A DNA stretch of 64,000 nucleotides, from positions 19,366 to 83,365 of the forward strand of contig MFNF01000017.1 in assembly GCA_001783715.1 (NCBI GenBank), written 5' to 3'. Origin of the DNA: Candidatus Lambdaproteobacteria bacterium RIFOXYD2_FULL_56_26. GTDB taxonomy: Bacteria > SAR324 > XYD2-FULL-50-16. The notes beneath the pieces are model-generated. The model worked only from the letters and a program-made list of their open reading frames with translations. It did no database searches and was not told where the DNA came from. The translations under genes were made by a program, and so were the position numbers. Positions 2,338 to 60,715 of the stretch are shown piece by piece (the first letter of the stretch is position 1; each line of letters opens with the position of its first letter).

Positions 2338-4233
2338 ATGATCGAGCCAAACCGCAACCTAGCACCCGAACGGGTGGGCCACTTGCCCCCCGAAAGCCGC
2401 ATCGCCGTTCGCCCGACCAGGAGGCCTCTGGTCGTCCCCGAAACGACCCAAGAGAAGCTCAAGTTCTGGGTTTGGCCGATGGGGATCCTGATCTCGATCA
2501 CCACCTTTTTGTACCTGGGCTTCGGGCTGCTGAACTTCAACTTCCACGGGGAAGACTCTTTTTTGGTGCTGGCCTTTTCTTCCTCTGGAGAGGCGGTTGC
2601 CGATGCCCTGAACCCTTTTACCGGTTTCTTGTCGGCCATCTTGGGGATCATGATCACGGTCATTGCGATCGTACTCCAGTTGGCCGCCCAAAGGTACGGC
2701 ACCCGGCTGATCGATTTGTTCTTGGAAGACCAAGTCAACCGGGCCTACTTCGCCTTTATGGTCTGCACCCTGATCTACTCGGTTTACATCACCTATTCGA
2801 TCAAGGACACCTTCTTTGCCCAGTTGGCGATTTTCCTGCTGGTGGTGGCGACCCAGGTCGAGATTGCCCTGTTGGCCCCCTATTTTTTGTACCTGTTTAA
2901 ATTCTTGACCCCCACCAACTTACTGCACAGCATCCAGGTCTCTTCCAAGACAGCGGTGCTTTCGGTGATCAAAACCAAGCCCGGAGAATCCTTGGGCCCG
3001 GCCCAGGCCGAAGTGGCCGGGGCAATCGAACAGGTCACCGACTCGGCTCTTTCGGCGGTTAACCAGATGGACCGCAACCTGGGGCTGATGGCGCTCAACC
3101 AGATGCGGGAGATGGTGCTGGATTACCAGCAACTCAAACAGCAGTTGCCCCCTGAATGGTTCATCGTCCCCCAGGAATATTTCGTGGGGATTTCGCAGGT
3201 CTTTTACCAGGAAATCTGCGAAAAACGGCTGTGGGTCGAAACCAAAGCCTGCATGGACCTGGAGTTGATCTACAAAAACTCCATCCGGGTGATGCCCGAT
3301 GCAGTTTCTACCATTGCCAGGAACATCCGCCTGTTGGCCGAAGAAGCAATCCGGGACCGGGACGACGAGGTGCTGGACCTGATGGTCCAGTTTTTTAACA
3401 CCTACATCCGCATTGCCATCAACGACAAAAACGTGCGGGTGATCTTCAACCTCTTTTACCAATACCGCCTGCTGGCCGAAGCGGTGATGGACTACGACCC
3501 GGAAGTGGCCTCCAAAATCCTCTTTTATTTTAAGTACTACGGGGAAACCTGTCTGCAACAGGGGTTGTGGTTTGTGATGCTCACCGCCGCCTTTGACTTG
3601 GGTGGTATGGTGGCGGTGGCCTATGACAAAAAGGTCAAAAACTTTGAAAAGATGTTGCTGGTTTTTTTGAGCCTCGAAGACAACGTGGATCCCAAAAAGG
3701 ACTTTCTCGCCTTTGACGCAATCCGCAAAGCCCAGCTGATCCTTTCCACCTACATGTATTCCAAGGGTGAATCTGCCTTGATCGGGCTGGTGATCGAAGA
3801 CCTCAAAAGCGAAACCTTGGAAAAACTGCACCACTACCGCAACGCCTTGTTGGGGGTCAAATCCAAGAAGTTTTGGGAGGTGACCGACCGGGGTTATACC
3901 TTTGAATACATGGAGCCGGATCAAAAGGAATGGTTGGGCCGGTTTTTTGAGGAGTACATCCTGCCCCAGCAACACCTGTTCAAACAGGCCCCGGCGGAAG
4001 TTGCGCCGGTTTTGACCGAACGGCAGAGGTTGGAGCGGGAGGCACAAGAACAGTTGGCCAACGAATCCCTAAAGGAAGCGGCGGTCCAAAAGGCCCAGGC
4101 GGAGACGTTGGACCAAGAGGCGGCCAAGGCGGCCAAAAGGACGACCCGCAAAAAAGACGGTACCGAAAAACCCGCCAAAGCCCCGCGCAAGCCGAGGGTG
4201 CCAAAAACCCCTCCTTCCGATCAGGCGGTTTAA
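2338..4233 (+). CDS. DUF2254-like polytopic membrane protein with a Lys/Ala/Glu-rich C-terminal tail
   Basis: 4-5 N-terminal TM helices. LQLAAQRYGTRLIDLF resembles the DUF2254 signature (QL..Q.sPR..r.F). C-terminus is low complexity (KAAKRTTRKKDGTEKPAKAPRKPRVPK). Start codon uncertain. Confidence 0.55.
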   Translation: MIEPNRNLAPERVGHLPPESRIAVRPTRRPLVVPETTQEKLKFWVWPMGILISITTFLYLGFGLLNFNFHGEDSFLVLAFSSSGEAVADALNPFTGFLSAILGIMITVIAIVLQLAAQRYGTRLIDLFLEDQVNRAYFAFMVCTLIYSVYITYSIKDTFFAQLAIFLLVVATQVEIALLAPYFLYLFKFLTPTNLLHSIQVSSKTAVLSVIKTKPGESLGPAQAEVAGAIEQVTDSALSAVNQMDRNLGLMALNQMREMVLDYQQLKQQLPPEWFIVPQEYFVGISQVFYQEICEKRLWVETKACMDLELIYKNSIRVMPDAVSTIARNIRLLAEEAIRDRDDEVLDLMVQFFNTYIRIAINDKNVRVIFNLFYQYRLLAEAVMDYDPEVASKILFYFKYYGETCLQQGLWFVMLTAAFDLGGMVAVAYDKKVKNFEKMLLVFLSLEDNVDPKKDFLAFDAIRKAQLILSTYMYSKGESALIGLVIEDLKSETLEKLHHYRNALLGVKSKKFWEVTDRGYTFEYMEPDQKEWLGRFFEEYILPQQHLFKQAPAEVAPVLTERQRLEREAQEQLANESLKEAAVQKAQAETLDQEAAKAAKRTTRKKDGTEKPAKAPRKPRVPKTPPSDQAV

Positions 4234-6685: not shown

Positions 6686-6772
6686 GCCGGTCAAGCTGAA
6701 GGGGCTGACTGGGGGCCAAGAGCAGGACTCTTTGGCCGGTTCCTTTACCCCCGTCGCCAGTGACGTTTGGGG

Positions 6773-8608
6773 TCAGCTCAGGTTTGGGTTGGTCGCCCCT
6801 TTTTCCAACATCCACTTCCAGTTCAGCTGCAACCTTGTCAAGGCACGGGTCTGCTTGAGGGAGACGTAGATCTTGTACAGATACGCCACCGCTTGGGGCT
6901 CGGGCTTGATCAGGAGCAGGGCCTCAAAGGCGGAAATGGCTCTTTGGTAGTCCTTCTTGGCCAAGGCGGCCTTGCCTTGGGCCATCAGCTCGTCCGGGCG
7001 GCTTTGGTTTTGTAGTTCCTTGATGTCCCCCACCAGTGCGGCATGTTCCTTTTCCAGGGCCTGGACCTTTTCGGTATTGTTCAAGGCCCGGTGCAGCTTG
7101 ATGGCCTTTTGCAGCAATTCCGGCCGGTGGGCGAGCTTGGCACAGTATTCAAAGGCCTGGGCGGCTTCCTTGATCCGGTTGGACCGGTACATCAGGTCGG
7201 CAAACTGGTCGAACAACTCCACCCCCGCCGCAAGGATCTTTTTTTCAATCCCGTTCAGGCCCCGGCTCTGCTCGAAGGCCAGGGAAACCTTTTCAAAGGC
7301 CGGGGTGATTTGGCCGCAGGAAAGATGGGCCTTGGCCAGACTCAAGGCCAGCTCGGGGGTCGGGTAGTTTTCCAGGGCCACTTCCAGGTACTTGACCGCC
7401 TGTTCGGGCTTTTCTTGGGTGATTAACTTGGCGGCCTGCTCTTCCAGAGCACTAGGGCCAAAGACCCAGCCGGTTTCCTCCAGCAGGGCGGCGGTCTTGA
7501 GCAGGTACTTGGCCGCTTCGGTCCTCTGGCCGTGGGTTTTGTACAGCTGGCCCAGGTTGACGTTGACGTAACGGTTCCGAGGGTGGTTCTTGGCCAGCGA
7601 TTCTAAGAGCGAAAAGGCATGGGCTTGGTTGCCGAGTTGGAAAAAACAAAGGGCCCGCAGCAGGTCCAAGTACAAAAACCGGCTCTTTTTGGCCTTGAGT
7701 TGGTCCAGCTCGGTCAGAGCGGCTCCGGCTCGTTTGTGTTGGTACAAAAAGAGGCCCAGGTTAAAAAGGTGGGCTTCCAGCAGCCCAAAACCAGGTTGGC
7801 CCGCCTCTAGGTTCAAAAAAGGTGCCGCCTTTTGGCGCAAAGCCAGTTCCAGCAAATCTTCACTGATCTCGATTTCCTGTTGCTCCAACATCGTTACTTG
7901 GTCGCACAGGGCAATGGCCTCTTCGATCTCGACAATTGAAAAACTGGCGGCTTTTTTGCGGATCAATAACACCATTTCTTGGCATTGCTCTTCCTTTTGG
8001 CTGGCCGACATCTGTTGGCGCAGTTGGTTGAGCAGGTCGGGGCCACCCAAAAAGTCGGGAAGGTGGTGCTCGTCATTGCGGGCCAAACGGTCCAGGGCGG
8101 TTTTGGCCTCCTGGTCGAAGAGGTCCACCCCGGCTTCCAAGGCCGCCAGATTGTACTGGGGGTAAACATACTTGGGGTTTTTGGCCAACGCCAGCCGGTA
8201 AAACTCTTTGGCCAAGTCCAGTTGCCCGGCCCGGCGGTGGATGTGGCCGAGCTTGTTGGTCAGGTCAAAGTCCTCGGGGAAGACATCCAAAAGCGCCTTA
8301 CCCAGGGCCAGGGCCTCTTCGGTCCGTCCGGCGGAAAGGGAATGGGAGAGGTGGGTGCGCAGCCGTTCGGCGGTTTTTACCGGCGCAAGCTTGAGGGCGG
8401 TCACAAACAGCGCCTCGGCCACCGAGTAGGCCTGCCGCTCGAAGGCAATCAGACCTTCGGTGACCTGGGCTTCCGCTGACAGGTTGGGGCTGCCGTTTTG
8501 GGCAGTTTTGGGGGGAGTTGAACCTAAAAAACCTAGCTTTGCCACTGTGATACCCAAGACCTCAGGAACGAATGGTGTTGCCCCAGAGAAGTAGGGAGTT
8601 TTCCCCAT
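6773..8608 (-). CDS. tetratricopeptide (TPR) repeat protein
   Basis: 611 aa with many 34-residue TPR-like units (e.g. AEALFVTALKLAP, ALALGKALLDVFPED, EFYRLALAKNPKY). Confidence 0.75.
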   Translation of the reverse strand: MGKTPYFSGATPFVPEVLGITVAKLGFLGSTPPKTAQNGSPNLSAEAQVTEGLIAFERQAYSVAEALFVTALKLAPVKTAERLRTHLSHSLSAGRTEEALALGKALLDVFPEDFDLTNKLGHIHRRAGQLDLAKEFYRLALAKNPKYVYPQYNLAALEAGVDLFDQEAKTALDRLARNDEHHLPDFLGGPDLLNQLRQQMSASQKEEQCQEMVLLIRKKAASFSIVEIEEAIALCDQVTMLEQQEIEISEDLLELALRQKAAPFLNLEAGQPGFGLLEAHLFNLGLFLYQHKRAGAALTELDQLKAKKSRFLYLDLLRALCFFQLGNQAHAFSLLESLAKNHPRNRYVNVNLGQLYKTHGQRTEAAKYLLKTAALLEETGWVFGPSALEEQAAKLITQEKPEQAVKYLEVALENYPTPELALSLAKAHLSCGQITPAFEKVSLAFEQSRGLNGIEKKILAAGVELFDQFADLMYRSNRIKEAAQAFEYCAKLAHRPELLQKAIKLHRALNNTEKVQALEKEHAALVGDIKELQNQSRPDELMAQGKAALAKKDYQRAISAFEALLLIKPEPQAVAYLYKIYVSLKQTRALTRLQLNWKWMLEKGATNPNLS

Positions 8609-8687
8609 CTCTGGCGACAGACTACCAAAATTCCTTGAAATGCCTAGGGAAAAAATGGAAAAATCGATAGGTGCAAATACCTAGACC

Positions 8688-8706
8688 GAGCCCCAGCCGG
8701 GGCTCG
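8688..8706 (-). terminator. possible hairpin downstream of glyA (weak)
   Basis: cgagcccc-agcc-ggggctcg, an 8-bp stem about 25 nt past the glyA stop on the minus strand. The U-tract (complement of aaaaatggaaaaa) is displaced about 20 nt, so this is not a canonical intrinsic terminator. Confidence 0.25.
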
Positions 8707-8731
8707 ATCAGGTGATGTCCGATGGATAGGA

Positions 8732-10261
8732 CTAGCGCAGACCAAAGGGGCTGAGCAGAAACGCCAGGTCCAGCTCCGGGTACAGAGGGAATTGACCCAA
8801 AAGGGCCTGGACCCGAGCTTGGGCAGTTTGGGCCACTAGCGGATCGATTTGGTAGTTCGCCTTACTTTCCTGTCCGGCGTTGGCCCCCGATGCAACCTTG
8901 GCCGGCTTGGTGTTGGACAAAACCAGATGCAGGATCGAGGCGATTTCAACCATCTCCTTTTTTCCCATCCCCAAGGTGGAAATTGCGGCGGTACCCAGGC
9001 GCAGACCGCTGGTGTACCAGGGGCCGTTGCCGTCAAAGGGGAGACTGTTGCGGTTGAGGGTGACGTTGCACTCTCGCAGCACCGACTCTGCCTGCCTGCC
9101 GGTCAAGCCAAAGCCCTTTTGTACGTCCACCAAAAAGAGGTGGTTGTCCGTGCCCCCGGTTGCCACCGGCATCTTGAGGTCCACGCAGGCTTGGGCAAAG
9201 GTCTGGGAGTTTTCCACAATCTTTTGGGCATAGGTGGAAAATTCCGGTTTGAGCGCCTCGGTAAAGGCTACGGCTTTGGCGGCCATCATGTGCGGCAGGG
9301 GACCGCCTAAAATGGCCGGGCAACCCTTGTCCACCGACTCGGCGAATTCCTGGGTGCAAAGCACCATCCCGCCCCTGGGGCCGCGCAGGGTCTTGTGGGT
9401 GGTAGTGGTGACCACGTGGGCATGGGCAACCGGGTTGTAGTCCCCGGTGAAGACCTTGCCTGCCACCAGTCCGGCAAAGTGGGCCATGTCCACCATAAAG
9501 ACCGCACCCACTTCGTCGGCAATGGCCCGCATGGCCTTGAAGTTGATTCTCCGGGGGTAGGCGGAATAGCCGGTCAAGAGGATCAAAGGCTTGACCTCCA
9601 AGACCAGCTTGCGAATCGCCTCCAGGTCCAAAATCCCCGACTCCCGGTCCACCGAATAAGAATAAACGTCAAACATCTGGGCGGAGAAGTTGTGCCGGTA
9701 GCCGTGGGTCAAATGGCCGCCTGAGTAGTAGTCCAGGGCCACCAATTTTTGCTGGTGCATCAACGCCCTCACCCCTTCCCAAACCTCACGGCTCAAGGCG
9801 GAGGGATTTTTTTCCTTGAGCGCCTCCAGGGCCGGGGCCTGGACTCGGGTCAGCAAAATGGCGATAAAGGCCACCATGTTTGCGTCCGCACCGGAGTGGG
9901 GCTGGACGTAGGCATGTTCAGCCCCAAAAAGCTGCTTGGCCAGATTGACCGCTTCGGTCTCAATGGCATCCACATTGTCGCAACCGGCGTAAAACCGGTG
10001 TTGCGGGTAACCTTCGGCATATTTGTCGGTCAAAAGGTTGCCCATCGCCAATTGGGTCGCCAAGGAGGAGTAGTTTTCCGAAGCGATCAACTTGAGGTTC
10101 CTTCTTTGGTCCCGAAGCTCACCTACAATTCCCTGGACCACCGCCGGGTTGACCTTGGAGATCTGGTCCAGGGCCGCATAATAGGCGGCCACCGCCGGGT
10201 TGGCTTCGCTGCCGGAGGTGAGTTTTGCAAGGTAGGACTGGAGGTAGCTGGTTGGTTCCAT
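8732..10261 (-). CDS. glyA: serine hydroxymethyltransferase
   Basis: PLP-lysine motif VVTTTTHKTLRGPRGG, ELIASENY-like LKLIASENYSS, GGTDNHLFLVD, C-terminal FPLYPE. 509 aa: about 25-aa N-terminal extension (or a later start) and a ~30-aa insertion (RVQAPALEALKEKNPSALSREVWEGVRALMHQQK) relative to E. coli GlyA. Confidence 0.93.
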   Translation of the reverse strand: MEPTSYLQSYLAKLTSGSEANPAVAAYYAALDQISKVNPAVVQGIVGELRDQRRNLKLIASENYSSLATQLAMGNLLTDKYAEGYPQHRFYAGCDNVDAIETEAVNLAKQLFGAEHAYVQPHSGADANMVAFIAILLTRVQAPALEALKEKNPSALSREVWEGVRALMHQQKLVALDYYSGGHLTHGYRHNFSAQMFDVYSYSVDRESGILDLEAIRKLVLEVKPLILLTGYSAYPRRINFKAMRAIADEVGAVFMVDMAHFAGLVAGKVFTGDYNPVAHAHVVTTTTHKTLRGPRGGMVLCTQEFAESVDKGCPAILGGPLPHMMAAKAVAFTEALKPEFSTYAQKIVENSQTFAQACVDLKMPVATGGTDNHLFLVDVQKGFGLTGRQAESVLRECNVTLNRNSLPFDGNGPWYTSGLRLGTAAISTLGMGKKEMVEIASILHLVLSNTKPAKVASGANAGQESKANYQIDPLVAQTAQARVQALLGQFPLYPELDLAFLLSPFGLR

Positions 10262-10988
10262 GTGCTTTGGGCCAAAAAAGAAGTTTGCTTGAGAGGTGTC
10301 TCCCTTTTTAGCCGCTCAGGCACTCTTGGGCAACCCCCATTTGGGGGCCCTTGTAGGGGAGCAGAGGCGGCGGGCCAATCCCCAAGCAAAGGGGTGCTTT
10401 TGCACTCCCACTTCCAGGCAAGGTCCGGCTTATGCAACAAACACCATATGTCATAAAGTCTCCATCCACAAAGAGGGCGGCGGAACTTTCCCCCAACGGA
10501 ACGGTTCTCCCCCTGGCAACCTGGGGAGGGTTCATGTTCGCCATTTTGTTGACTTGTGTCGCTGTGGGCTCGGGGGTCGGGCTGGGGGCGGGGATCGGTT
10601 GGGAGTTGTTGCGCCGGATGGACCATAAACAGTGAGTGCTTCGGTCGGGTGGTTTTGCTTGTCAGGCCCGGTTTTACCTCCGTCGTTTTTTTGGGGCTGA
10701 GGACGCACAAGGTTGTGGACCTTGGAACCGGGGATGGTTGCCGCTCCGGTTTTTTTCAGGGGGGCCGCCACCCCTTAAAATAGCTCTGCTTTCAAAAGGA
10801 GAGTCTTTAGCCTTCGCCCTCGGTCCGGCCAATCCCTCCAGCCTCCAGGGTCGGTAGTCTTCTCTAAGGCCAAATCCCCAGTCAGTTTAGGTTGAAACAT
10901 GGGTTGCCCCATTAAAAAAAATTGCGTAGATTGAGGAGCCTTGTCCGCCCGCTTGGTGCAACGGAAAAAGGTTCATTCCAGGAGGAAA

Positions 10989-12773
10989 ATGGAAGAATTG
11001 ATGAAACTCTTGACCCCCGCACAGCAGTATTGGTTCGCCAATCTGCTGATCCACGCCATTTGGGCGGACGGGAAGATCGTCTTGAGCGAATTCGAGAGCT
11101 TCCAACGGCTGATAGGTTTGTTCAAATCTTTGGAAAACCGCACCCAACTGATGCGGCACCTGGAAAACAACCAAGGCGAACCGATCGTCCTCCCCCCCGA
11201 CCTGGACCGCAAACTGCTCCCCCAGGTTTACCTGGAGGTCCTCAACTTCTCCATCTCCGACTGGGACTTGGCCGAAGAGGAGCGTAACTTCCTGGAGACC
11301 TTATCCAACCAATTCGGTTTTGCCAAAAGCTTCCAATACACCTTGATGCAGTGGGCCGAAGAGGGGCTTCGGTGGCAAGAAGACCAACGGCTTTTGGTCC
11401 CCCGTGAGGTCACTCTAAAAAACCCCCGGGTGCCGCTCCACCAGATGACTGACCAGCAAAAGGTCTGGTACGCCGAGGTGCTGGTCAGCGTGGTGATGAT
11501 CGACGGCATTGTGGACCCGATGGAGATCAAGCTCCTGCGGACTGCCCTCAGTTTTGTGGCGGAAGAAAAGGAAAAAAAGCGGCTGCTCGCCTTCATCAAA
11601 AACCGTATGCGCCCTTCCCTGCTTTCCCCGCCTCCGGGCCTGGAAATGGAAGTGATCTACCTGATCTTTTTTGAGGTGCTCCGGGTCATGTCGCTCAACG
11701 ATGAGCTGGCCAACAAGGAGATGATTTTTATTGGGGACTACATCAAGGCCTGCAATCTCCCCGCCTCCCTGGAAGACCGCACCTTGGTCTGGTGTAAACG
11801 AGGTACCACTTGGCGGCAGAAACGAAAAAGTCTGGCCAAGCTGGGTGCCTTCGTGGACCTGGGCTCCGGCTCTTCGTTGGAAAAAAGTGAAGACCGCTGG
11901 TTGCCTCACGGCGAAAACAACAGCCTCCAGTATCGGGAACAGACCTGCTATCTTTGTGACAACAATCTGCCGATCAAGGTGTACCGGTTGCGGCCCAAAA
12001 GCCAAAAACCTGCGACCAACCTCTTTGGCCTGCCGGTTTATGTCGGAGCCATGACCGCCCAGGACCACCCCTTGGATTTCAACAAGGTGAAGATCAGCGT
12101 CTGCCCCAACTGCCTGTTTGCCTCTCCGGCCAAAGAAAGCTTCCGGGCCAAGGAGGTGGACAAGGTCCCGCCGGTTTTTGAGGACCGGGACTTTTTGGTC
12201 CAATGGATGGAAGGGACGGAAAAACGTAAAGCCAGCTACGGGATGTTGCTCCAAGAGCTGGAGAGCGTAAATCCTTCGGTGCCTCATGTAGAAAAGCTGT
12301 ACCGCCTAGCGATCCACTGCCTCAACCAGCTCCAAAAGGCAAGGCCCGACGACCGGCAGCGGTGGGGGATCATCTTTTTGGGCCTGGGGTTGGCAGAGAT
12401 TTTGGTGAATGCGGGCCATGTGGGGGAAGCGGAAAAGGAACTGCTGGAAGCCGAGCGGTTGTCCAAGGAATTGATGTTGTCCACCCGGGACAACGAACTT
12501 TCCCTTCGCTCGGCCAAACTGCTGTTCCAATTGGCTCTGTACCAGAACAACGCCAAATCTGCCAGCAACTACCTCAACTTCTTTGTCCGCCTCAAAGACG
12601 AAAAGATGGCCAGCATGAAACCGGCGGAAAAAAGCCAGTTTTTAGGTTACTTCAACGAGGTCAAACGGGACTTTGAAGACCGAGAGGAACTGCAAAAATC
12701 AAAACTCGACGGATTCAAACGTAAGGTTGAAGTTCCGACGGCAGCACAACCGGAAAAAGAAGAGGAAGCCTGA
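10989..12773 (+). CDS. multi-domain protein: three TerB-like domains fused to a DUF2225-like zinc-ribbon/TPR C-terminal domain
   Basis: Start reassigned to ATG 10989 (MEELMKLL) preceded by aggagg RBS. TerB-like helix pairs: ANLLIHAIWADGKIVLSEFESF, VWYAEVLVSVVMIDGIVDPMEIKLL, IYLIFFEVLRVMSLNDELANKEMIF. DUF2225-like CYLCDNNLPIKVYRLRP...KISVCPNCLFAS followed by TPR-like helices. Confidence 0.55.
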   Translation: MEELMKLLTPAQQYWFANLLIHAIWADGKIVLSEFESFQRLIGLFKSLENRTQLMRHLENNQGEPIVLPPDLDRKLLPQVYLEVLNFSISDWDLAEEERNFLETLSNQFGFAKSFQYTLMQWAEEGLRWQEDQRLLVPREVTLKNPRVPLHQMTDQQKVWYAEVLVSVVMIDGIVDPMEIKLLRTALSFVAEEKEKKRLLAFIKNRMRPSLLSPPPGLEMEVIYLIFFEVLRVMSLNDELANKEMIFIGDYIKACNLPASLEDRTLVWCKRGTTWRQKRKSLAKLGAFVDLGSGSSLEKSEDRWLPHGENNSLQYREQTCYLCDNNLPIKVYRLRPKSQKPATNLFGLPVYVGAMTAQDHPLDFNKVKISVCPNCLFASPAKESFRAKEVDKVPPVFEDRDFLVQWMEGTEKRKASYGMLLQELESVNPSVPHVEKLYRLAIHCLNQLQKARPDDRQRWGIIFLGLGLAEILVNAGHVGEAEKELLEAERLSKELMLSTRDNELSLRSAKLLFQLALYQNNAKSASNYLNFFVRLKDEKMASMKPAEKSQFLGYFNEVKRDFEDREELQKSKLDGFKRKVEVPTAAQPEKEEEA

Positions 12774-13183
12774 TGTCCACCGACCGACAGATCCACATCC
12801 TGATCGTTGACGACTCTGCCCCCATGCGGCATTTGGTGCGCCAGTCCCTGGAGGAACTGTACTTCCAAAATTTCCACGAAGCCGGGGATGGGGAAGAGGC
12901 CTTAAAGATCCTGCACAGTGAGCCGGTGGACTTGGTGCTGCTTGATTGGCAGATGCCCAAGATGACCGGTATTACTTTGCTCAGAGAGATCCGGGGAGAT
13001 GCAAAGTTACGGCAGATTCCAGTGGTGATGATTACCTCGGAAGCCCAAAAGCACAACATTTTGGAAGCAGCCAAGGAAGGGGTGACCGGTTTTGTGGTCA
13101 AGCCCTTTGACTCTTATGTTTTGGGAGAAAAGATCGAAAAGATCCTCTCCCAACCCCCCAGGTTGGCCCCCAAGCCCAATTAG
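12773..13183 (+). CDS. single-domain CheY-like response regulator receiver
   Basis: ILIVDDSAPMRHLV...LVLLDWQMPKMTGI...VVMITSE...GFVVKPF with conserved DD, D(phospho), T, K positions. TGATG overlap gives translational coupling to the upstream gene. Confidence 0.88.
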   Translation: MSTDRQIHILIVDDSAPMRHLVRQSLEELYFQNFHEAGDGEEALKILHSEPVDLVLLDWQMPKMTGITLLREIRGDAKLRQIPVVMITSEAQKHNILEAAKEGVTGFVVKPFDSYVLGEKIEKILSQPPRLAPKPN

Positions 13184-13246
13184 GCTGAAGGATACCGGTT
13201 TGGGCTCTCAACCGACAAACATCTTGTTGCGCCAAGGCTAGGGAAG

Positions 13247-13672
13247 ATGTCTATATTGGGACGGAAAAAAAAAGCCAAACAAAAGTCCCCCTCGGAGCTG
13301 ACTTCGCCCGACTGGGCACGGTGGCTGGAGGTGGCCCCCTTTCCGCAGGAAGACGAGCCTTGTTTGACCGGCAACTTTCTGATGGAAAATGGCCGACTGA
13401 TCTACGGCAACGTCCGTTTGGCCGAGCTTTTGGGCTACAGCGCCGGGGAGTTGATCGGCAAGAAATTGGAGGAACTGGTCCATCCCTTGGACCTGGAATT
13501 GGTTTCGGACCGCAACAATGCTCGGCTTCATGGCCTGCCGGTGCCCAGTTGTTACGAGATTCGGGTGCTTTGTGGGGGAGGGCAAACCAAAAGGGTCCTC
13601 ATCAACGTAACCCTCACCACCGGCCCCCAGGGGCAAACCCTGACGGTTGGCTCGGTTCTACCGGTGGACTAG
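13247..13672 (+). CDS. PAS domain protein
   Basis: 141 aa. NGRLIYGNVRLAELLGYSAGELIGKKLEELVHPLDLE is a PAS-fold sequence pattern. Confidence 0.6.
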   Translation: MSILGRKKKAKQKSPSELTSPDWARWLEVAPFPQEDEPCLTGNFLMENGRLIYGNVRLAELLGYSAGELIGKKLEELVHPLDLELVSDRNNARLHGLPVPSCYEIRVLCGGGQTKRVLINVTLTTGPQGQTLTVGSVLPVD

Positions 13673-14337
13673 GGGACCAGTCGGCGGATGATCCGTTCGG
13701 CTGCTTCTTCGTCGATCAGGGTAAACCGTTTCCACCCTTCGTCCAGGGCATAAACATCCGCCTTGGCGATGTCGAACCACCAGCCGTGAACCCCCAGGGT
13801 GCCTTCTTCCAGTCTTTTTTTGACCGCCGGGTAAGACTTAACGTGCTCCATTTGCAGCAGCACGTTGAGTTGGGAAAGCTGGTTGTGCTTGGCCAGGGTG
13901 GGGTCTAGGGCGATCCCTGCGGCCAATTGTTGCACCGCTTCATCCCCATGCCGGAGCCAGCTTTTGAGGTTCGGGTACTTCACCTTGTTCCGGTTGTCGA
14001 TCAAGGCCTTCATGGCGGCACATTCGGAATGGCCGCAAACCACAATGTTCTGGACCGACAGGCTTTCAACCGAATACTCGATGGCCGCCGCTTCGGACTC
14101 ATCGCTGCTCGAAACTCCGTCTTGACCGCAAGGGGGGACCAGATTGCCGACGTTGCGCAACACAAAGAGGTCTCCAGGGTCGGTGGACGCAAAGGTGTTG
14201 GGCACCACCCGGCTGTCCGAACAGGCGATAAAAAGTGTGTCCGGCGACTGGCCGGTGGCCAACCGGCCAAAAGCTTCCCGGTAGCCTTCTTGGACGTTGC
14301 GGCGAAACTCTACGATCCCTTGGATCAGCTTTTTCAC
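13669..14337 (-). CDS. beta-class carbonic anhydrase
   Basis: Zinc ligand motifs CSDSR and HSECAAM (HxxC); 222 aa, typical of beta-CA. Confidence 0.88.
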   Translation of the reverse strand: MKKLIQGIVEFRRNVQEGYREAFGRLATGQSPDTLFIACSDSRVVPNTFASTDPGDLFVLRNVGNLVPPCGQDGVSSSDESEAAAIEYSVESLSVQNIVVCGHSECAAMKALIDNRNKVKYPNLKSWLRHGDEAVQQLAAGIALDPTLAKHNQLSQLNVLLQMEHVKSYPAVKKRLEEGTLGVHGWWFDIAKADVYALDEGWKRFTLIDEEAAERIIRRLVP

Positions 14338-14895: not shown

Positions 14896-15315
14896 ATGCA
14901 GCCTAGGATACTGTTGGTGGACGACGACAAAAACAATTTGTTTTTGCTGGCCAAGATGTTGGCCCCTTATGGCCGAGTGGAGCAGACCACCAACGGTTAT
15001 GTGGCGCTGGCGATGTACAAGGCCTCGCTGGAGTCGGACAACCGGTTTTACCTGCTCTTTTTGGACATTGAGATGCCCGAGATCAATGGCCGAGAGGTTT
15101 TGCGGCAACTGCGGGAATACGAAGAATTGTACCTGCGGATGGACGACTTCCAAGCCACGGTGGTGATGGCTACGGCCAACAGTAACAAGGACGTGATCGA
15201 GCAGAGCTTCAAGGAGGGCTGCGAATATTACATGCTCAAGCCCTACCGGGCCGAGCAGATCAAAAAGGTGATGGACAACCTGGGGGTCAAGGCCAGGGAG
15301 CCCATTTCCCGGTAG
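14896..15315 (+). CDS. orphan response regulator receiver domain protein
   Basis: ILLVDDDKNN...LLFLDIEMPEINGREVLRQLR...VVMATAN...YYMLKPY. Confidence 0.8.
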   Translation: MQPRILLVDDDKNNLFLLAKMLAPYGRVEQTTNGYVALAMYKASLESDNRFYLLFLDIEMPEINGREVLRQLREYEELYLRMDDFQATVVMATANSNKDVIEQSFKEGCEYYMLKPYRAEQIKKVMDNLGVKAREPISR

Positions 15316-49989: not shown

Positions 49990-51825
49990 TTAAAAATCCA
50001 GGTCCAGTTGAGGTCGGCTCTCGATCTCCCCCATCATGGCCAGTTGTTGTTCCTCTTCCTTTTCTTGCTTGTCCTCTTCTTCCTCGACCTCCAAGGCCGG
50101 TTCGGGCATGGACTTCCACTTGAACAGCAAGGCGTTGAGCGCCCGAGTGTGTTTGAGACCCTTGTAGATTCCTGCCAGCAGCATAAAGACATCCTTGTCT
50201 TTTTTCATGGACAAGGCATCTTCCAGCGCCTTGGCGGCTTTCAGGTAATCCTTGGCCCGATAAAACTGCTTTCCTTGTAAAATTAGGGCCTGTCTGCGGG
50301 CTTCAATCTCTGCCAGCTCCTTTTGGATCCGCATTTTGTTGATTTCATCTTGCAGCAGATCCACCTCACTGTTGCGGTTGAGCACCCCTAAGATGCGGAC
50401 CCGTTGCTTGAGGGTTTCCATTTGCCGCAAAATCTTTTCCGCCCTGAAGTTGTCGGCCAGAGCGTTTTGGAACTTTTTTTCCTCCATGGCGGTTTCCGCC
50501 AGTTTGAGGTACCCGTCGTGTACTTCCTGCAACAAGGTTCGGGTCAGTTCGCCGTTCGGGTCCAACTCCCGCATTTTTTGGTAACAAACCAGGGCTTGGT
50601 CGTGGTCGTCGAGGCTCCGGTAAACGTCGCCCATCTTGGCCCGAATCTCGGGACGCTCTTGGATCAGGCAGGCCTCTTCGTATAGCCCCAGGGCATCTTG
50701 TTTGCGGTCTTCCAAAAAGAGATCGTCCCCGTGGGCCAAAATTTCTTCGACCCGATAGAGCCCCTGTGAACGGGAAAGGAGCCGAGCGGCATTGCATAAA
50801 AAGAGGTGCCCTTCCAATGGTTTCCCAGCTTTGAGGAAGGTAATGCCCAGATTCTGGTTTAGCGCTCGGTTGTAAGGTTGGCTAGTCCTAAGTTGCTCTA
50901 AGGCCAAGAAATTTTCGTCGCTTGGGTCCAAATTAAACTTGGAAAGGGCGCAAAGGGTTGCAACTTCAGGCATGACGGATTTTTGGTTGGACAGGCGGCA
51001 AAAAATTTCGGAGGCCTTGGCAAAATCCCCGTTTTCAAAGGCAAAAAGGGCAAAATTGAAGTTGTCCGACTGAATTACGTTTTGGACCAAGTCGGGCGGA
51101 CTGTTGCGCCAGTTGGTTTTAACCCGTTCCGCCAGTGTCTCTTGGATGGTGGCTGGGTCCTGGGGCTTGCCGGCGGCGGCTAGGTTGCGTTTGACCGTTT
51201 CGATCAGGTCCGGGTCCCCTTGGTAGGTCGGGAGCCGTAGTTTGCGCACCGGGATCCACCGGGCCAGGAATTCCTCGACCTCTTGGTCGTAGGCCTCCAG
51301 TTTGGCTCCATTGGCTCCAAAATTCAGGTGGGCTTTGGTGTAATCCGGTTTGATTTGGTAACAAAGCCGGTAAAAGCGGTCAGCCTGCTCCCTCAACTTC
51401 AAATGTCTGGCACAATTGCCCAGGTGGTTGAGGATCACATAGTTTTTGGGCTCCAACTCCAACAAAATCCGGCCCAGGTTGAGCGCTTCTTCAAAGCTGT
51501 CCGCTTTGATCAACCGGGCAAACTGCTGGCCCAGCCCCGTTTTTGCCCCTTGAGGGTCCAGTCCCAACGCCTTTTGGAACTCAACGGAAGCGGACTTCAT
51601 CAACTTGCCTCGGAGCAGCAAAAAACCTTTTTGCAGCACCTCTTGGACTTGGGCGCTGGGGGCTTGGGGACCGGAGCTTTCACTCATGGAAAAAACCTGT
51701 TTGGAGGCGATCGGCAAAGGAGCCGCCCTTTTTATACCTGGGTTAAAAAGTAAAACTGGGTTAAAAGTAAAAAATCCTTGTGCAGTAAGCTCCTTCCGGT
51801 ATGCAGAGGGTAGGCCAGAGCCCAA
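49990..51825 (-). CDS. TPR repeat protein with acidic C-terminal tail
   Basis: 611 aa; TPR-like units; C-terminal EVEEEEDKQEKEEEQQ. Confidence 0.7.
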   Translation of the reverse strand: MGSGLPSAYRKELTAQGFFTFNPVLLFNPGIKRAAPLPIASKQVFSMSESSGPQAPSAQVQEVLQKGFLLLRGKLMKSASVEFQKALGLDPQGAKTGLGQQFARLIKADSFEEALNLGRILLELEPKNYVILNHLGNCARHLKLREQADRFYRLCYQIKPDYTKAHLNFGANGAKLEAYDQEVEEFLARWIPVRKLRLPTYQGDPDLIETVKRNLAAAGKPQDPATIQETLAERVKTNWRNSPPDLVQNVIQSDNFNFALFAFENGDFAKASEIFCRLSNQKSVMPEVATLCALSKFNLDPSDENFLALEQLRTSQPYNRALNQNLGITFLKAGKPLEGHLFLCNAARLLSRSQGLYRVEEILAHGDDLFLEDRKQDALGLYEEACLIQERPEIRAKMGDVYRSLDDHDQALVCYQKMRELDPNGELTRTLLQEVHDGYLKLAETAMEEKKFQNALADNFRAEKILRQMETLKQRVRILGVLNRNSEVDLLQDEINKMRIQKELAEIEARRQALILQGKQFYRAKDYLKAAKALEDALSMKKDKDVFMLLAGIYKGLKHTRALNALLFKWKSMPEPALEVEEEEDKQEKEEEQQLAMMGEIESRPQLDLDF

Positions 51826-53111: not shown

Positions 53112-55370
53112 TTGAGTTCTTCCTTGGACGACAAAAAACAAACTCTCAATCCAAATTCTTTGGGCCACCGGTTGGACCTTTGGCGCGGGGCGGCTTTACC
53201 CTTGCTGCTGACGCTGACCAAGCGGGTGACCAAGCTTTCCGTAGCCAGCCTGGGGCCGGTTTTAGACCCCGAGCCGACCCCGCTGGTGGTTTGGACCCAA
53301 AACCGAACCCCCTGGTTCAACCAAAGGGCGCAGATGGACCTTGGCCAGTCGGCGGTTGAGTTGCCCTCGGACTTTTGGAGCCGGTTGGAGGAACTGGGTT
53401 ATTGGGAAGGTGCCCTCCGGCTGGGCGACCAAACCGAACAGGCCATTGCCTTGCCCATTGACGGACAAAAGGCCTTGATGGCTCTGGGCTCCGGTCGGCC
53501 AGGGCTGAAGGTACTCAGTGAAGCACAAATCGCCTTGGACCCGGCCTTGGAAGGGATCTTTTTTAAGGCGATCTTGGAAACCGACCCCAACCTCATCTCC
53601 GTCAAAGACAAGGAAGGCCGGTTTCTCTTGGCCAACCGCTCCATGGCTCGGCTTTATGGGGTCCAGCGGGAACAGCTTTTGGGCCGTACCGATGGGGACT
53701 TCAACCCGGTGGCCGAGGACGTGGCCCGGATCAAAGAGGCCGACCAAAGGGTGATCGCCCTCAAGGAACCCTTGTTCATCCATGAAGAACACATCCAAAA
53801 TTGTTACGGCGAAGACCTGACCCTTCAGTCCATCAAGGTCCCGCTGTTTGATGGGGCAGGGGACTGTCACTCGGTCCTGGGGATCAGTGTGGACTTGACC
53901 AGCCAAAAGCGGTTTGAACAGGCCTTGGTTGAATCCAAAGAGACCGCCGAAAGGGCCAACCGGGCCAAGTCGGAGTTTTTGGCCAACATGAGCCACGAGA
54001 TTCGCACCCCGATGAATTCAATCTTGGGCTTTTCCGAGATTTTGACCTCTCTGGTCACCAACTCCAAACAAAAAGAATATTTAAGCGCCATTTTGTCCAG
54101 TGGCCGCACCTTGATGGCGTTGATCAACGACATCCTGGACCTCTCCAAGGTGGAGGCCGGAAAGCTCCGGTTGGAATACGTTCCGGTGGAGCTTTTCACC
54201 TTGTGCCAGGAACTGGGGCAGGTGTTTTCCCAGGTGATGCGGGAAAAGGGGCTGGCCTTCGAGCTGAAGCTGGGGCCTACCTTGCCCGCCAGGGTTTTCT
54301 TGGACGAGGTGCGGATGCGCCAGATGTTGCTCAACCTGATCGGCAATGCCGTAAAATTTACGGAGCAAGGGCGGATCACCTTGGCCCTGAATGCGGTTGG
54401 GAACGATCCAACGGTTCAACTGACCGTCAGCGTGGAGGACACGGGGATCGGTATCCCCGAAGACCAATTGGACAGCATCTTTGGAGCTTTCGATCAGCTT
54501 CGGGGGCAAAGCGCGGCCAAGTATGGCGGAACCGGGTTGGGGCTGGCAATCACCAAAAAATTGGTGGAAATGATGGGCGGGGAAATCCAGGTCCAAAGCT
54601 CCCTGGGAAAGGGCAGCAGATTTGACCTGATCCTTCCGGCGGTAGAGGTGCTGCAACCGGCTGATGAACAGGGCAAACCGGGAAAAATCGATTTTGAGGG
54701 GCTGGTCTTTGGGGCCGCCAAACTTTTGGTGGTGGACGACTTGACCGAAAACCGGCAGTTGATCTGCGGATTTTTGCCCTACCCCAAGCTCTCCTTGGCG
54801 GAAGCCAAAGACGGCTGGGAGGCTTTGGAACTCGCCGCTTCTTGGCAACCGGACCTGATCCTGCTGGACTACAAGATGCCCGGGCTGGGGGGGAAAGAAG
54901 TCCTAGAAAAGCTTCGTGCCCGGCCCGAAACCGCCGGTATTCCGGTGGTGGTGGTGACGGCGGCGGTGATGAAAGACCAGGAATTGGACCTGAAAAACGA
55001 ATTTTCCGGTTATCTCTCCAAACCCATTCGGCGGGAAGATTTATTGACCTGCCTGTGCCGCTTTTTGGCTCACGACTTCCAACGGGTGAACGCTCCGGCC
55101 TGTCGCCTGCCCTTGAGCCGACAAGCACTGGCGGCCCTGGAGGGCTTTGGCCCCTACCAGGAGAAGTACTCGGTGGCGGTGGAAGAGCTGGTTTTGAACC
55201 AGACCATCAACGACATGGAGGACTTCGGGCAAAAGGTCCTCACCGAAGCCAAGGAGATGGGGTTTTGTGCCCTGGAGAATTGGGCGGAAGAACTGGTGGA
55301 GATGTGCATGGTCTTTGACATGGCCGGGGTCAGCAAACTGTTCAAGGAACTGCAAAAGGCAATGGAGTGA
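53112..55370 (+). CDS. hybrid sensor histidine kinase (PAS-HisKA-HATPase-REC, C-terminal Hpt-like region)
   Basis: H-box ANMSHEIRTPMNSILGFSEIL; N/G boxes LIGNAVKFT, DTGIGI, GGTGLGLAITKKLVEMMGGEI; receiver LLVVDDLTENRQ...LLDYKMPGLGG. Start uncertain. Confidence 0.85.
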   Translation: MSSSLDDKKQTLNPNSLGHRLDLWRGAALPLLLTLTKRVTKLSVASLGPVLDPEPTPLVVWTQNRTPWFNQRAQMDLGQSAVELPSDFWSRLEELGYWEGALRLGDQTEQAIALPIDGQKALMALGSGRPGLKVLSEAQIALDPALEGIFFKAILETDPNLISVKDKEGRFLLANRSMARLYGVQREQLLGRTDGDFNPVAEDVARIKEADQRVIALKEPLFIHEEHIQNCYGEDLTLQSIKVPLFDGAGDCHSVLGISVDLTSQKRFEQALVESKETAERANRAKSEFLANMSHEIRTPMNSILGFSEILTSLVTNSKQKEYLSAILSSGRTLMALINDILDLSKVEAGKLRLEYVPVELFTLCQELGQVFSQVMREKGLAFELKLGPTLPARVFLDEVRMRQMLLNLIGNAVKFTEQGRITLALNAVGNDPTVQLTVSVEDTGIGIPEDQLDSIFGAFDQLRGQSAAKYGGTGLGLAITKKLVEMMGGEIQVQSSLGKGSRFDLILPAVEVLQPADEQGKPGKIDFEGLVFGAAKLLVVDDLTENRQLICGFLPYPKLSLAEAKDGWEALELAASWQPDLILLDYKMPGLGGKEVLEKLRARPETAGIPVVVVTAAVMKDQELDLKNEFSGYLSKPIRREDLLTCLCRFLAHDFQRVNAPACRLPLSRQALAALEGFGPYQEKYSVAVEELVLNQTINDMEDFGQKVLTEAKEMGFCALENWAEELVEMCMVFDMAGVSKLFKELQKAME

Positions 55371-55430
55371 CTTTTTTTCAAGCGTTCGAGTTTTTGGGGC
55401 TTTTTGGGTGTACTTAGGGGGACTTTCAGC

Positions 55431-56744
55431 ATGAACAATCCACATACCAATTACCTGAAAAACACGGCTCCCCAAAGCCGTGAGGACTTTATCAATCTTC
55501 TGGGCCAGACCTCCTTGTTTGCCGGGTTGCCCAAGGAATTGCGCAGTCGGATCTTCGATTATGCCAAATTCATGGACTTGGGCAACGGTGAACGCCCGGT
55601 GGTGGAAGGCATGTTTGACCAAGAGATTTATCTTTTGATCAAAGGGCGGCTGGATGTTTTCATCAAGCTGGAAAACAAAAAGGAAAAGCAGATCGACAGC
55701 CTGGGCGAGTCGTTCACCCTGTTCGGGGAGCGGTGCCTGTTGGGACAGCCTCGGGGGGCTTCCATCCAGTCCAACGGCGAGTCGCTGCTCTTGGGGCTCG
55801 ACCTCTCCTCCCTGCCCGACTTGAACGAACACTTGGAAGACCCTTCGGTCCGCCTGGAGGACTCGGCCTACCAAGACAACCTGGACATGTATCTGGTGGT
55901 GGCCTCGGTTCTGTACGGACGGCTGGAGCGGTTGGTGCACGACCAATACAAGTTGGCCAACCGGATCCGGGGCATGAAAAAAGGCATCCGGGTCAAAAAG
56001 CACAATGTGTTGATGACCCAGTTGTACAATGAATTGGTGGAAAACCGGTTGGCTGTGGAGTTGCGTTCCCCGGAAATTTGGCGGAGGTTGTTGCGAAACC
56101 TGAAAAGCGAGGTGTTAGACCGGCTTTTGGAAGAAGAGGTTTTGAACACCGCCCGGATTTATGAAGAGCTGGTTCGGCTCCAAGCGTTGGGGTTGTTGCA
56201 ACAAAGGGACTGGGTCTATGACCTGCTCAAACGCCTGACCGAGCAGGCCAAGTTCCTGAAGCGGTACTATGAGCCTTTGCAGGTGGATTCCAATGGGCTG
56301 CCCGAAGTGATGGAGTTGGCCCAATGTCTGGAGGATTTGCACCTGAACGTCGAAAAAGCCGGAATCTTGACCCGGTCCATCCATTTCTCCGAGTTCTTGG
56401 AAGCCCTGGACGACCAGGGGCGCTGGAATCCCTCGGGATTGGTGAAGCACTTGGGCGAGGTGGGGCTGCTCACCAGTTGGTTTGGCCGGGCCCATTTGGC
56501 GCTGGTCTTGTGCAGCGCCTTGATCTCTTTGATGGGCAAGGCCAATCAGGTGATCGCCAGCTACGTCAGCTTCCTGGGCAACCTGCACACCCAGCCCCGG
56601 CAGTTCCCCAAACAAACCGGGGAGGATCTGGCCTCCTTGTTCGAGACCTTTTACCAATCCCTGCAAAAGTCCCCCGGACCGGAGGCCGCTCTGGAGGCGG
56701 TCGAACCTTCGGTGGACAGTTTGTTGGCCCAGTTTGGGATGTAA
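55431..56744 (+). CDS. cyclic-nucleotide-binding (cNMP/Crp-like) domain protein with unknown C-terminal domain
   Basis: LFAGLPKELRSRIFDYAKFMDLGNGERPVVEGMFDQEIYLLIKGRLDVF...FGERCLL is the cNMP-binding beta-roll pattern. Start set at MNNPH (55431). Confidence 0.65.
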   Translation: MNNPHTNYLKNTAPQSREDFINLLGQTSLFAGLPKELRSRIFDYAKFMDLGNGERPVVEGMFDQEIYLLIKGRLDVFIKLENKKEKQIDSLGESFTLFGERCLLGQPRGASIQSNGESLLLGLDLSSLPDLNEHLEDPSVRLEDSAYQDNLDMYLVVASVLYGRLERLVHDQYKLANRIRGMKKGIRVKKHNVLMTQLYNELVENRLAVELRSPEIWRRLLRNLKSEVLDRLLEEEVLNTARIYEELVRLQALGLLQQRDWVYDLLKRLTEQAKFLKRYYEPLQVDSNGLPEVMELAQCLEDLHLNVEKAGILTRSIHFSEFLEALDDQGRWNPSGLVKHLGEVGLLTSWFGRAHLALVLCSALISLMGKANQVIASYVSFLGNLHTQPRQFPKQTGEDLASLFETFYQSLQKSPGPEAALEAVEPSVDSLLAQFGM

Positions 56745-56771
56745 GGTTTCCTCTGGGAAACCGACCGGGAC

Positions 56772-57116
56772 CTAAAAGTGGTTCAGCTCCAGCCGCAACC
56801 CTTTGATGGAAGCTTCGGCGATGGGCCGGACCAAGTCGAGCAGGACCGGGATCATCTCCGGTTTCCCCTTGGAGCGTTGGAGCTGCATCGCCTTGCACAG
56901 GTCCCCCAAGGCTTGAGCCCCCAGGTTCAGGGCAATCCCTTTGAGCTTGTGGGCCTCATCCTCAAAGGCCTCAAAGGATTCGGACCGGTATAGGTCTTCC
57001 AGGTTTGCCAACAGATTGGGGTAATCCGCTTCAAACTTGTTGATCAGTCCGGCGAAAAAGTCCTTGCCCAAGACCCGCCGGGTTTCAAGCAAAGGGGAAT
57101 CGATCAATTCAATCAT
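56772..57116 (-). CDS. Hpt (histidine phosphotransfer) domain protein
   Basis: AHKLKGIALNLGAQALGDLC is the Hpt HxxKG motif; 114 aa. Confidence 0.8.
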   Translation of the reverse strand: MIELIDSPLLETRRVLGKDFFAGLINKFEADYPNLLANLEDLYRSESFEAFEDEAHKLKGIALNLGAQALGDLCKAMQLQRSKGKPEMIPVLLDLVRPIAEASIKGLRLELNHF

Positions 57117-57195
57117 GGTTTATAGGCTAGGTTGTGCCTGCACCTAGTCTCCAAAGGCGACCGCCCTTGGGTTTGAGGTGAGGTGGGTTGTGGGG

Positions 57196-58638: not shown

Positions 58639-58670
58639 AAAGATGCGGTCTTGGGAGCCTTAGTACCAGC

Positions 58671-59788
<1,118 letters not shown>

Positions 59789-59792
<4 letters not shown>

Positions 59793-60715
59793 CCGTCGAT
59801 CTCCTTTTGGGGGGCAAATGCGATGCGGTTTCGACCGTTGTTTTTGGCTTCATAGAGCAATTTGTCGGCGGTGTCGATCAACTCCAGTTCGTTGCCGCCG
59901 TTAAACTCGGTCGCCCCGCCGCTGATGGTGATGGCAAGGCCGGGCTGGGTCCAGGTGAGGGCCGCGATGTTTTTGCGGATCTTTTCGGCCACCACTTTGG
60001 TGTCGGCCAAGGTGGCTTTGGGCAGCACCACCAGAAATTCTTCCCCGCCGTACCGTCCGGCCAGGTCCGATTCCCGGATCGAGTCCTTGATGGTTCGGGC
60101 CACTTTGACCAAAACTTCATCCCCCACCGGGTGGCCATAAACGTCGTTGACCTTTTTGAAGTGGTCCAGGTCAAACATGATCACCGAAACCGGGTCCCCG
60201 TAACGCCGGGCATCGGCCAACTCTTTGGAGAGGATCTCAAAGATGAATTTGTGGTTGTACAGCTGGGTCAGGCCATCGGAAATCACCATTTGCTCCAGGA
60301 CCTGATTTTTTTCCTCCAACTCCACCAAGGCCCGGCGCAGCTTGAGGTGGGTCCGCACTCGGGCGAGCAGCACTACCGCACTGAAGGGTTTGGAGACAAA
60401 GTCCACCGCCCCCGACTCGAACCCCAAAACCACGTCTTTGGTTTCGGTTTTGGCGGTCAAAAAGATCACCGGGATTGGTTCGGTCCGAACATTGGCCTTG
60501 AGCCTTTTGCAGGTTTCGTAGCCGTCGATCCCTGGCATCATTACGTCCAGCAGAATCAAATCGGGCAAAACCTTGTTGGCCAACTCCAGGGCCGATTCTC
60601 CGTCGTAGGCAACGTTGATCAGGTAGTTTTCCTTGCGCAGCAGAGTCCCCAGCAGGTGGATGTTTTTTTGGGTGTCATCCACGATCAAAATGCGAAAGGC
60701 CTTGTTTTCGTTCAT
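59789..60715 (-). CDS. response regulator with GGDEF diguanylate cyclase output (PleD/WspR-like)
   Basis: Receiver ILIVDDTQKNIHLL...LILLDVMMPGIDGYE; GGDEF domain DGLTQLYNHKF...FDLDHFKKVNDVYGHPVGDEVL...RYGGEEFLVVLP (active-site GGEEF) with an RxxD-like I-site context. Confidence 0.9.

Follow-up and report, generated by a model that had tools for sequence, protein, structure and literature searches.

Analysis of a 64,000-nucleotide stretch of contig MFNF01000017.1 (positions 19,366 to 83,365, forward strand) from Candidatus Lambdaproteobacteria bacterium RIFOXYD2_FULL_56_26, hereafter the window, revealed a conserved pair of translationally coupled genes that in relatives is part of a dedicated Hpt-type two-component system. 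In this study the 594-amino-acid protein at 10989..12773 (+) and its gene are named X, and the receiver encoded at 12773..13183 (+) is named REC. Overall, our analysis suggests, with a probability of about 0.8, that X and REC function together as a pair within a two-component pathway. X is a soluble protein without a recognisable catalytic domain, and no transmembrane segment was predicted in it. The parts of the pair, by window position, are as follows.

10989..12773, plus strand: X, 594 amino acids; two TerB-like domains, a four-cysteine zinc ribbon and a TPR-like helical repeat (DUF2225-type)
10989..11408, plus strand: TerB-like domain 1 of X, residues 1-140
11424..11858, plus strand: TerB-like domain 2 of X, residues 146-290, repeating domain 1 in tandem
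11904..12173, plus strand: zinc-ribbon region of X, residues ~306-395
12186..12692, plus strand: TPR-like helical repeat of X, residues 400-568, forming the C-terminal portion of the DUF2225-type domain
12773..13183, plus strand: REC, a CheY-like single-domain response regulator of 136 amino acids

The open reading frame (ORF) of X given in the preliminary description was borne out by the ORF call. An AGGAGG precedes its ATG and orthologues start at the same residue, and hence the ATG at 10989 is preferred over an upstream TTG at 10941. The TGA of X and the ATG of REC have one base in common (TGATG), as had been read from the window, and the same overlap was found at three further loci. These are a locus on contig 1 of the metagenome-assembled genome GCA_032250835.1 (L001), a paralogous locus in the same genome (L002) and the locus of Candidatus Lambdaproteobacteria RIFOXYD2_FULL_50_16 (L003, identical to L005). 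Identity to the window proteins was 60% for X and 77% for REC at L001, 50% and 64% at L003, and 40% and 41% for the paralogues at L002. Gene-neighbourhood comparison thus confirmed that the arrangement is conserved in related genomes. The window is collinear with L001 over ~17 kb in the order DUF2254 ... TPR, glyA, an interval, X, REC ... prfA, rpmE, rho. An independently assembled Rifle-aquifer scaffold, ANAN16-1 (L027), is 99.9% identical to the window over 10794..14290 and carries an identical set of ORFs. A locus scan of genomes with the close-family alignment A1 yielded three loci.

At L001, L002 and L003 a divergent kinase of 590-924 amino acids, built as sensor-Hpt-HATPase_c and lacking HisKA, lies upstream of X at the position that a spacer occupies in the window. 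The sensor of this kinase is 7TMR-DISMED2 / 7TMR-DISM_7TM at L001, a cyclic nucleotide monophosphate (cNMP)-binding domain at L002 and again 7TMR-DISMED2 / 7TMR-DISM_7TM at L003. The 727-bp spacer between glyA and X (10262..10988) is present as first described; tblastn and blastn found no trace of a kinase in it, and searches for Rfam families, repeats and remnants of genes were likewise negative. The divergent promoters once proposed for the spacer were not recovered, since the promoter scan found a single sigma-70-like site in 3.6 kb against 1.0 expected from shuffles, which is the level of chance. No Hpt-HATPase kinase occurs elsewhere in the window; this and all other window-wide negatives cover 64 kb, a part of the complete genome. 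The kinases present in the window are HisKA-type hybrids. Since none adjoins X, the kinase for REC would be encoded elsewhere in this genome or would have been replaced.

Two side observations were made in these regions. The spacer contains a 67-amino-acid ORF (10432..10635, +) with one strongly hydrophobic segment (KD19 2.05) and a pI of 9.6; it matches no family, lacks an obvious Shine-Dalgarno sequence and may be spurious, given the GC-rich DNA. A dense signalling island at 53112..63420 encodes a PAS-HisKA-HATPase-REC protein, a cNMP-binding protein, an HD-GYP-like HD_5 protein and REC-HisKA-HATPase, REC-GGDEF and REC-PAS-HisKA-HATPase-REC proteins.

The description of the second gene as a single-domain CheY-like receiver holds, with a Response_reg match at E 3e-29 and 45% identity to E. 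coli CheY. The best NCBIfam match of REC is CheY (NF007901), at 127.9 bits against an equivalog cut-off of 189 bits, and no che-operon context (CheA, CheW or a methyl-accepting chemotaxis protein, MCP) was found for it in the window. All residues of the phospho-chemistry are present in REC (D13, D14, D58, T88 and the lysine in VVKPF), with phenylalanine at the Tyr106 position. At L002 the receiver that is the paralogue of REC (7571..7978) has glutamic acid at the phospho-site and DE in place of DD, and is a possible phosphomimic pseudo-receiver; phosphorylation would hence not be universally required. Also at L002, the cNMP-Hpt-HATPase kinase has a canonical receiver (3282..3656) on its opposite side, and a third X-family paralogue (7991..10753, -; 561 amino acids, with a full-length identity to X of 28%) is convergent on the receiver at 7571..7978. 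This paralogue appears to be in one operon with a ParA/MinD-like ATPase and a 101-amino-acid ORF.

Identification of the domains of X required the profiles of its relatives. A direct Pfam scan of X returned TerB only (residues 164-191, 19.4 bits, below the gathering cut-off of 24.4 bits for PF05099), an NCBIfam scan of X gave no match, and Pfam DUF2225 did not match X even at E up to 10. The hidden Markov model search for TerB and DUF2225 proposed at the outset was much clearer through relatives than on X directly. A word-indexed homologue search found six close relatives of X, and the 29-sequence family alignment used as query returned the identical six. These match DUF533 or TerB across the whole of module 1: sub-threshold matches were obtained to TerB in 3/6 and to DUF533 in 4/6, the best being P0004 with 29.5 bits for DUF533 (PF04391, cut-off 29.6 bits).

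Comparison of residues 1-140 with residues 146-290 by hhalign gave a probability of 100% (E 2e-39), and the two segments also cross-matched in tblastn. Each module of ~140 amino acids divides into two half-units that are weakly related to each other (E 1.4e-5 for h1 against h2). The N-terminal half of X is accordingly predicted from sequence to be two TerB-like domains, four helical hairpins in all, and the three TerB modules initially counted are replaced by a tandem duplicate of one domain with two half-units in each copy. The module profile matched the TerB-like PDB structures 2h5n (E 0.003) and 2ou3, in agreement with a TerB helical-bundle fold. Across the family, D27, E34, D91 and E98 are each either invariant or kept in at least 90% of the sequences, and D27, E34 and E98 are kept in both modules as a putative metal site. 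The motif LxxEQKxWYA, which opens each TerB module, was considered as a FliM-like CheY-binding peptide and was dropped as too tenuous.

The C-terminal half of X was correctly described as a zinc ribbon followed by TPR. C320, C323, C372, P373 and C375 are invariant in the 29 sequences (cysteine codons at 11946-11948, 11955-11957, 12102-12104 and 12111-12113), and N344, F346, G347 and D363 are further invariant residues of the zinc-ribbon region. The AlphaFold2 model of X (pLDDT 89) places beta hairpins at 313-354 and then helices at 400-568; a CxxC...CPxC ribbon with a predicted zinc site, followed by TPR-like helices, is the DUF2225-type layout. All 15 family-invariant residues are present in X. 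The 60%-identical orthologue P0002 reaches 19.6 bits (E 8e-4) for DUF2225 (PF09986), under the cut-off of 21 bits, and P0006 reaches 11.8 bits. The X-family profile matches proteins over positions ~305-577 at E 1e-44 to 1e-10; the DUF2225 proteins that are positive in Pfam are reached over the entire C-terminal half, with E values as low as 1e-25. Among 30 sampled relatives of the C-terminal half only, 25 match PF09986 (best E 7.9e-20), some of them above the cut-off, e.g. P0085 (31.6 bits) and P0082 (31.0 bits). Because these relatives match PF09986 and an orthologue lies near the cut-off, the C-terminal half of X is assigned by transitive homology as a divergent DUF2225-type domain, here called the C-domain. 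A PDB profile search with the full-length X family found nothing, and Foldseek against the PDB gave nothing below E 0.001; the C-terminal half resembles solved structures only at a generic TPR level.

An exhaustive profile search with the X family found 370 wider relatives, of which 166 proteins were retrieved for architecture counts with local hidden Markov models. The architectures were as follows.

TerB-TerB-C-domain: 32 of the 166
TerB-C-domain: 48 of the 166
C-domain with other N-termini: 33 of the 166
REC-C-domain: 6 of the 166
REC-TerB-C-domain: 1 of the 166

The N-termini recognised by Pfam on C-domain proteins are PilZ, REC, CheX, cNMP-binding and hemerythrin/FleQ-like, and in every case an input-type module lies N-terminal to the C-domain. 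This place behind an input module is the usual one for an output domain. Since cis fusions of REC to the C-domain exist, the trans-encoded, co-translated receiver would act on the same C-domain. The fused receivers are 23-29% identical to REC and show no specific kinship with it, so there is no sign of recent gene fission or fusion. Representatives of the REC-DUF2225, TerB-DUF2225, REC-TerB-DUF2225 and TerB-TerB-only architectures lay on contigs too short to give an informative gene context. The TerB-TerB-only protein, of 288 amino acids, runs to the end of its contig and probably represents a fragment.

The pairing of X and REC is supported by their overlap at L001, L002 and L003, by the adjacent kinases there, by signalling genes beside other X-family genes (listed below), by the intact key residues of REC and X, and, as Rosetta-stone evidence, by the fusions of REC, PilZ, CheX, cNMP-binding and hemerythrin domains to the C-domain. 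The pathway may be pictured as follows. In relatives, the CheA-style kinase (Hpt phospho-histidine and HATPase_c, with a 7TMR-DISM or cNMP-binding sensor) would phosphorylate the receiver. Phosphorylated REC may then bind the zinc-ribbon/TPR (DUF2225-type) half of X, and co-translation through the one-base overlap would favour a 1:1 complex of X and REC. X would be a soluble adaptor in which the DUF2225 half serves as output, as a protein-protein interaction module, and the two TerB-like domains may give a second input in cis, possibly metal via their Asp/Glu pairs. The placement of X as the downstream partner or effector of phosphorylated REC is tentative, and we give it slightly less than even odds. 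The likeliest class of target for X would be the motility apparatus (a MotAB-type stator or the motor), with the cyclic di-GMP (c-di-GMP) network as the alternative.

Analysis of distant X-family loci showed signalling or motility genes in the neighbourhood, as listed.

L008: a divergent 7TMR-DISM-HATPase-REC hybrid kinase beside the X-family gene
L021: a HATPase kinase upstream and a REC downstream of the X-family gene
L020: a divergent MCP, and a REC abutting the X-family gene
L031: PAS-GGDEF-EAL, REC-GGDEF and Hpt near the X-family gene
L017 and L018: a cNMP-binding protein or kinase near the X-family gene
L010, L012-L015 and L017: a conserved operon of motA, motB (plug and OmpA), an O-methyltransferase gene and the X-family gene

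At L017 and L018 the X-family gene is followed downstream by a DUF1015 protein and then by the cNMP-binding protein or a cNMP-PAS-HATPase kinase. The six motAB loci represent one full-length X clade, in which the X-family gene starts 5-11 nucleotides after the family-3 O-methyltransferase gene. Their motA-motB pair is stand-alone, outside a flagellar cluster, with mnmE upstream on the opposite strand. The best families of these proteins are PomA/MotP/MotA and MotD/MotB/MotS, which are flagellar stator families. The motility lead is supported by this six-locus operon and by a knockout of a DUF2225 gene in Leptospira biflexa. Inactivation of LEPBIa0550, which belongs to the DUF2225 family, gave a motility defect with no growth or shape defect (PMC12236494). 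The gene had been picked since the family is present in spiral and absent in non-spiral spirochaetes (PMC12236494). This is the only functional statement on DUF2225 found in the searchable literature, where the domain is named in three papers and PF09986 in none. Overall, the motility apparatus as the target of X is rather unlikely to be the right specific answer.

Several results weigh against the proposed pathway and its motility target. No kinase adjoins X in the window, and the L002 paralogue of REC has glutamic acid in place of the phospho-accepting aspartic acid as described above. No homologues of MotA, MotB or MCP occur in the window, nor do homologues of FliM or of the methyltransferase of the motAB loci. 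The MotA and MotB scores of the motAB operons lie under the NCBIfam equivalog cut-offs, the motAB clade is only about 31-33% identical to X, and LEPBIa0550 is far more distant from X than that clade, so that its homology is remote. No signalling neighbours were seen at the SAR324 loci encoding TerB-DUF2225 proteins (~510 amino acids). Furthermore, these genomes are rich in receivers, and mere adjacency of a REC is weak evidence; only an orthologous, overlapping REC counts.

Alternatively, X may act upstream of or alongside REC, as an accessory regulator of REC phosphorylation (phosphatase-like, anti-kinase or scaffold, as with Rap, CheZ/CheX or CheW) that couples TerB sensing to the level of phosphorylated REC. 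The CheX-C-domain fusion among relatives and the position of the X gene between kinase and receiver in relatives are consistent with such a role. The TPR-like repeat of X could be receiver-binding as in Rap/RRNPP TPR proteins, and weak structural matches to RapI, RapF and NprR were obtained. However, the Rap/NprR matches cover ~76 residues and are generic, no better than other TPR matches, with all Foldseek E values >0.001; X lacks the N-terminal three-helix bundle and a peptide-pheromone system, has an added zinc ribbon and does not belong to the Rap/RRNPP proteins; and no Rap-like catalytic motif was seen in X, no dedicated test for one having been made. The fusions of REC, PilZ and cNMP-binding domains, moreover, put the C-domain in the output position. 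A modulator role for X is considered unlikely.

Another explanation is that the locus is a decaying remnant in this genome, in which the kinase was lost, a PAS-GGDEF gene was truncated, and X and REC were left orphaned with little or no function. The kinase is gone without trace in the spacer, the window holds no other Hpt-HATPase kinase, and the PAS ORF downstream of REC covers only the first PAS of a relative's 422-amino-acid gene. Decay is nevertheless improbable, as the ORFs of X and REC are intact with the Shine-Dalgarno sequence and overlap kept, X retains 15/15 of the residues invariant in its family and REC its full set of catalytic residues, and the independent assembly carries the same ORFs. 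The visible part of the genome amounts to only 64 kb, and distal kinases often serve orphan receivers.

The suggestion that X is a TerB-type stress, metal/tellurite-resistance or phage-defence protein, with the adjacency of REC reflecting transcriptional control only, is very improbable: the TerB fold does occur twice with conserved acidic pairs, NCBI labels relatives as TerB family tellurite resistance protein and the literature knows TerB domains from some defence systems, but no ter genes (terA/terC/terD/terE/terZ) flank the locus, its context is housekeeping and syntenic (TPR, glyA ... prfA, rpmE, rho), neither X nor the PAS protein was matched in PADLOC, where REC gave only weak matches of the generic receiver kind, REC cannot regulate transcription of X because it is a single-domain receiver without a DNA-binding output, and the fusions and one-base overlap argue for a protein complex. 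The membrane or metal stress role raised at the outset is not upheld, nor is one in tellurite resistance, with ter genes not nearby and X without a PADLOC match, and a phage-defence component was rejected in view of that result and the housekeeping neighbourhood.

The neighbours of X in the window are a TPR protein, glyA, REC, the PAS protein, a beta-carbonic anhydrase, a second receiver and prfA; those with features of interest are listed below.

8732..10261, minus strand: glyA, 509 amino acids, divergent from X
10262..10988, strand not applicable: spacer between glyA and X, 727 bp
13247..13672, plus strand: PAS-only protein, 141 amino acids (PAS_3/PAS above Pfam cut-offs)
13669..14337, minus strand: beta-carbonic anhydrase gene, convergent with the PAS ORF, with a 4-nucleotide overlap
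14896..15315, plus strand: REC2, a second single-domain receiver (Response_reg, E 2e-16)

The PAS ORF follows REC after a gap of 63 nucleotides. At its position in L001 lies a gene for a 422-amino-acid PAS-PAS-GGDEF protein, to residues 3-118 of which, the first PAS only, the PAS ORF is 42% identical; it is probably a truncated derivative of such a gene. The PAS gene is absent at L002 and L003. The PAS protein reported to follow CheY is hence real as an ORF with a PAS domain; it does not count among the conserved members, because it is absent at two loci and replaced by the longer gene at the third.

REC2 lies 2.1 kb downstream of X and shares 55.6% identity (E 3e-52) with the receiver abutting the distant X-family gene at L020. 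That receiver (6755..7228, -) meets its X-family gene in a 4-nucleotide convergent overlap on an unrelated metagenome contig. Unrelated receivers compared in this study share ~30% mutual identity. The comparison suggests that receivers of the REC2 type may form a second subfamily associated with X-family genes, and REC2 is tentatively a candidate associate of the X-REC unit.

Among the other neighbours, the usual SHMT is shorter than the glyA product of the window, which is ~90 amino acids longer; the form is equally long in the syntenic relative (508 amino acids), and the Pfam match of the window glyA is split in two stretches. Paralogous 611-amino-acid TPR proteins are encoded at 6773..8608 (-) and 49990..51825 (-), the former being syntenic with a 582-amino-acid TPR protein beside glyA in L001 (38% identity).

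Comparison with known systems placed X-REC close to several of them. Like DUF2225 proteins (PF09986, e.g. LEPBIa0550), X has a four-cysteine zinc ribbon followed by TPR-like helices, and the motility defect in Leptospira agrees with the motAB operons seen in one clade of X; unlike them, X falls below the Pfam threshold, carries two N-terminal TerB-like domains and is coupled to a receiver. In contrast to other TerB and TerB-like proteins (PF05099, DUF533; 2ou3, 2h5n), X lies outside a ter operon, and its domain is duplicated and fused to DUF2225, with a family-specific W-x3-G-x2-W helix closing each copy. Like single-domain CheY-type regulators, REC is stand-alone and predicted to be phospho-competent, and so must act via partner binding, and the PilZ-C-domain fusions suggest that the same output may be drivable by c-di-GMP. 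Partner-binding receivers and their analogues include CheY-FliM, the Caulobacter Cle proteins and, as a c-di-GMP analogue, the PilZ brakes YcgR/MotI. Unlike for CheY-type regulators, no che operon, FliM or MotA is present in the window, and the presumed partner is the co-translated adaptor rather than the switch complex. The first reading is thus mostly correct, with corrections to the number of TerB modules, to the standing of the PAS protein and, by adding the kinase that it had missed, to the context. X-REC follows the known logic of single-domain regulator and partner as an uncharacterised variant of it, and is not a categorically new system. No description of the arrangement was found in the searchable literature, in line with the novelty claimed for it at first; the TerB-DUF2225 fusion as such is already named in NCBI records, where relatives appear as TerB family tellurite resistance protein and as DUF2225 domain-containing protein.

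Single-domain response regulators are abundant, but apart from FliM not many of the proteins that they target are known. For DUF2225, a widespread domain, hardly any literature exists. The X-REC pair and the cis fusions lead to the hypothesis that DUF2225 may be a signal-output module and X the target of REC. The names given to relatives in databases as tellurite resistance proteins are probably misleading for the X family. A broader and more doubtful proposal is that the DUF2225-type zinc-ribbon/TPR domain might be a widespread, as yet unnoticed output module through which REC (in cis or in trans), PilZ/c-di-GMP, cNMP and CheX inputs control the flagellar stator or motor. The form carrying two TerB-like domains would add a metal (e.g. 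Ca2+) input and might define a new class of motor regulators, found from Lambdaproteobacteria/SAR324-like lineages to deltaproteobacterial groups and spirochaetes. Should the leads from the motAB operons and from Leptospira prove true, they would point to a new kind of cytoplasmic motility regulator.

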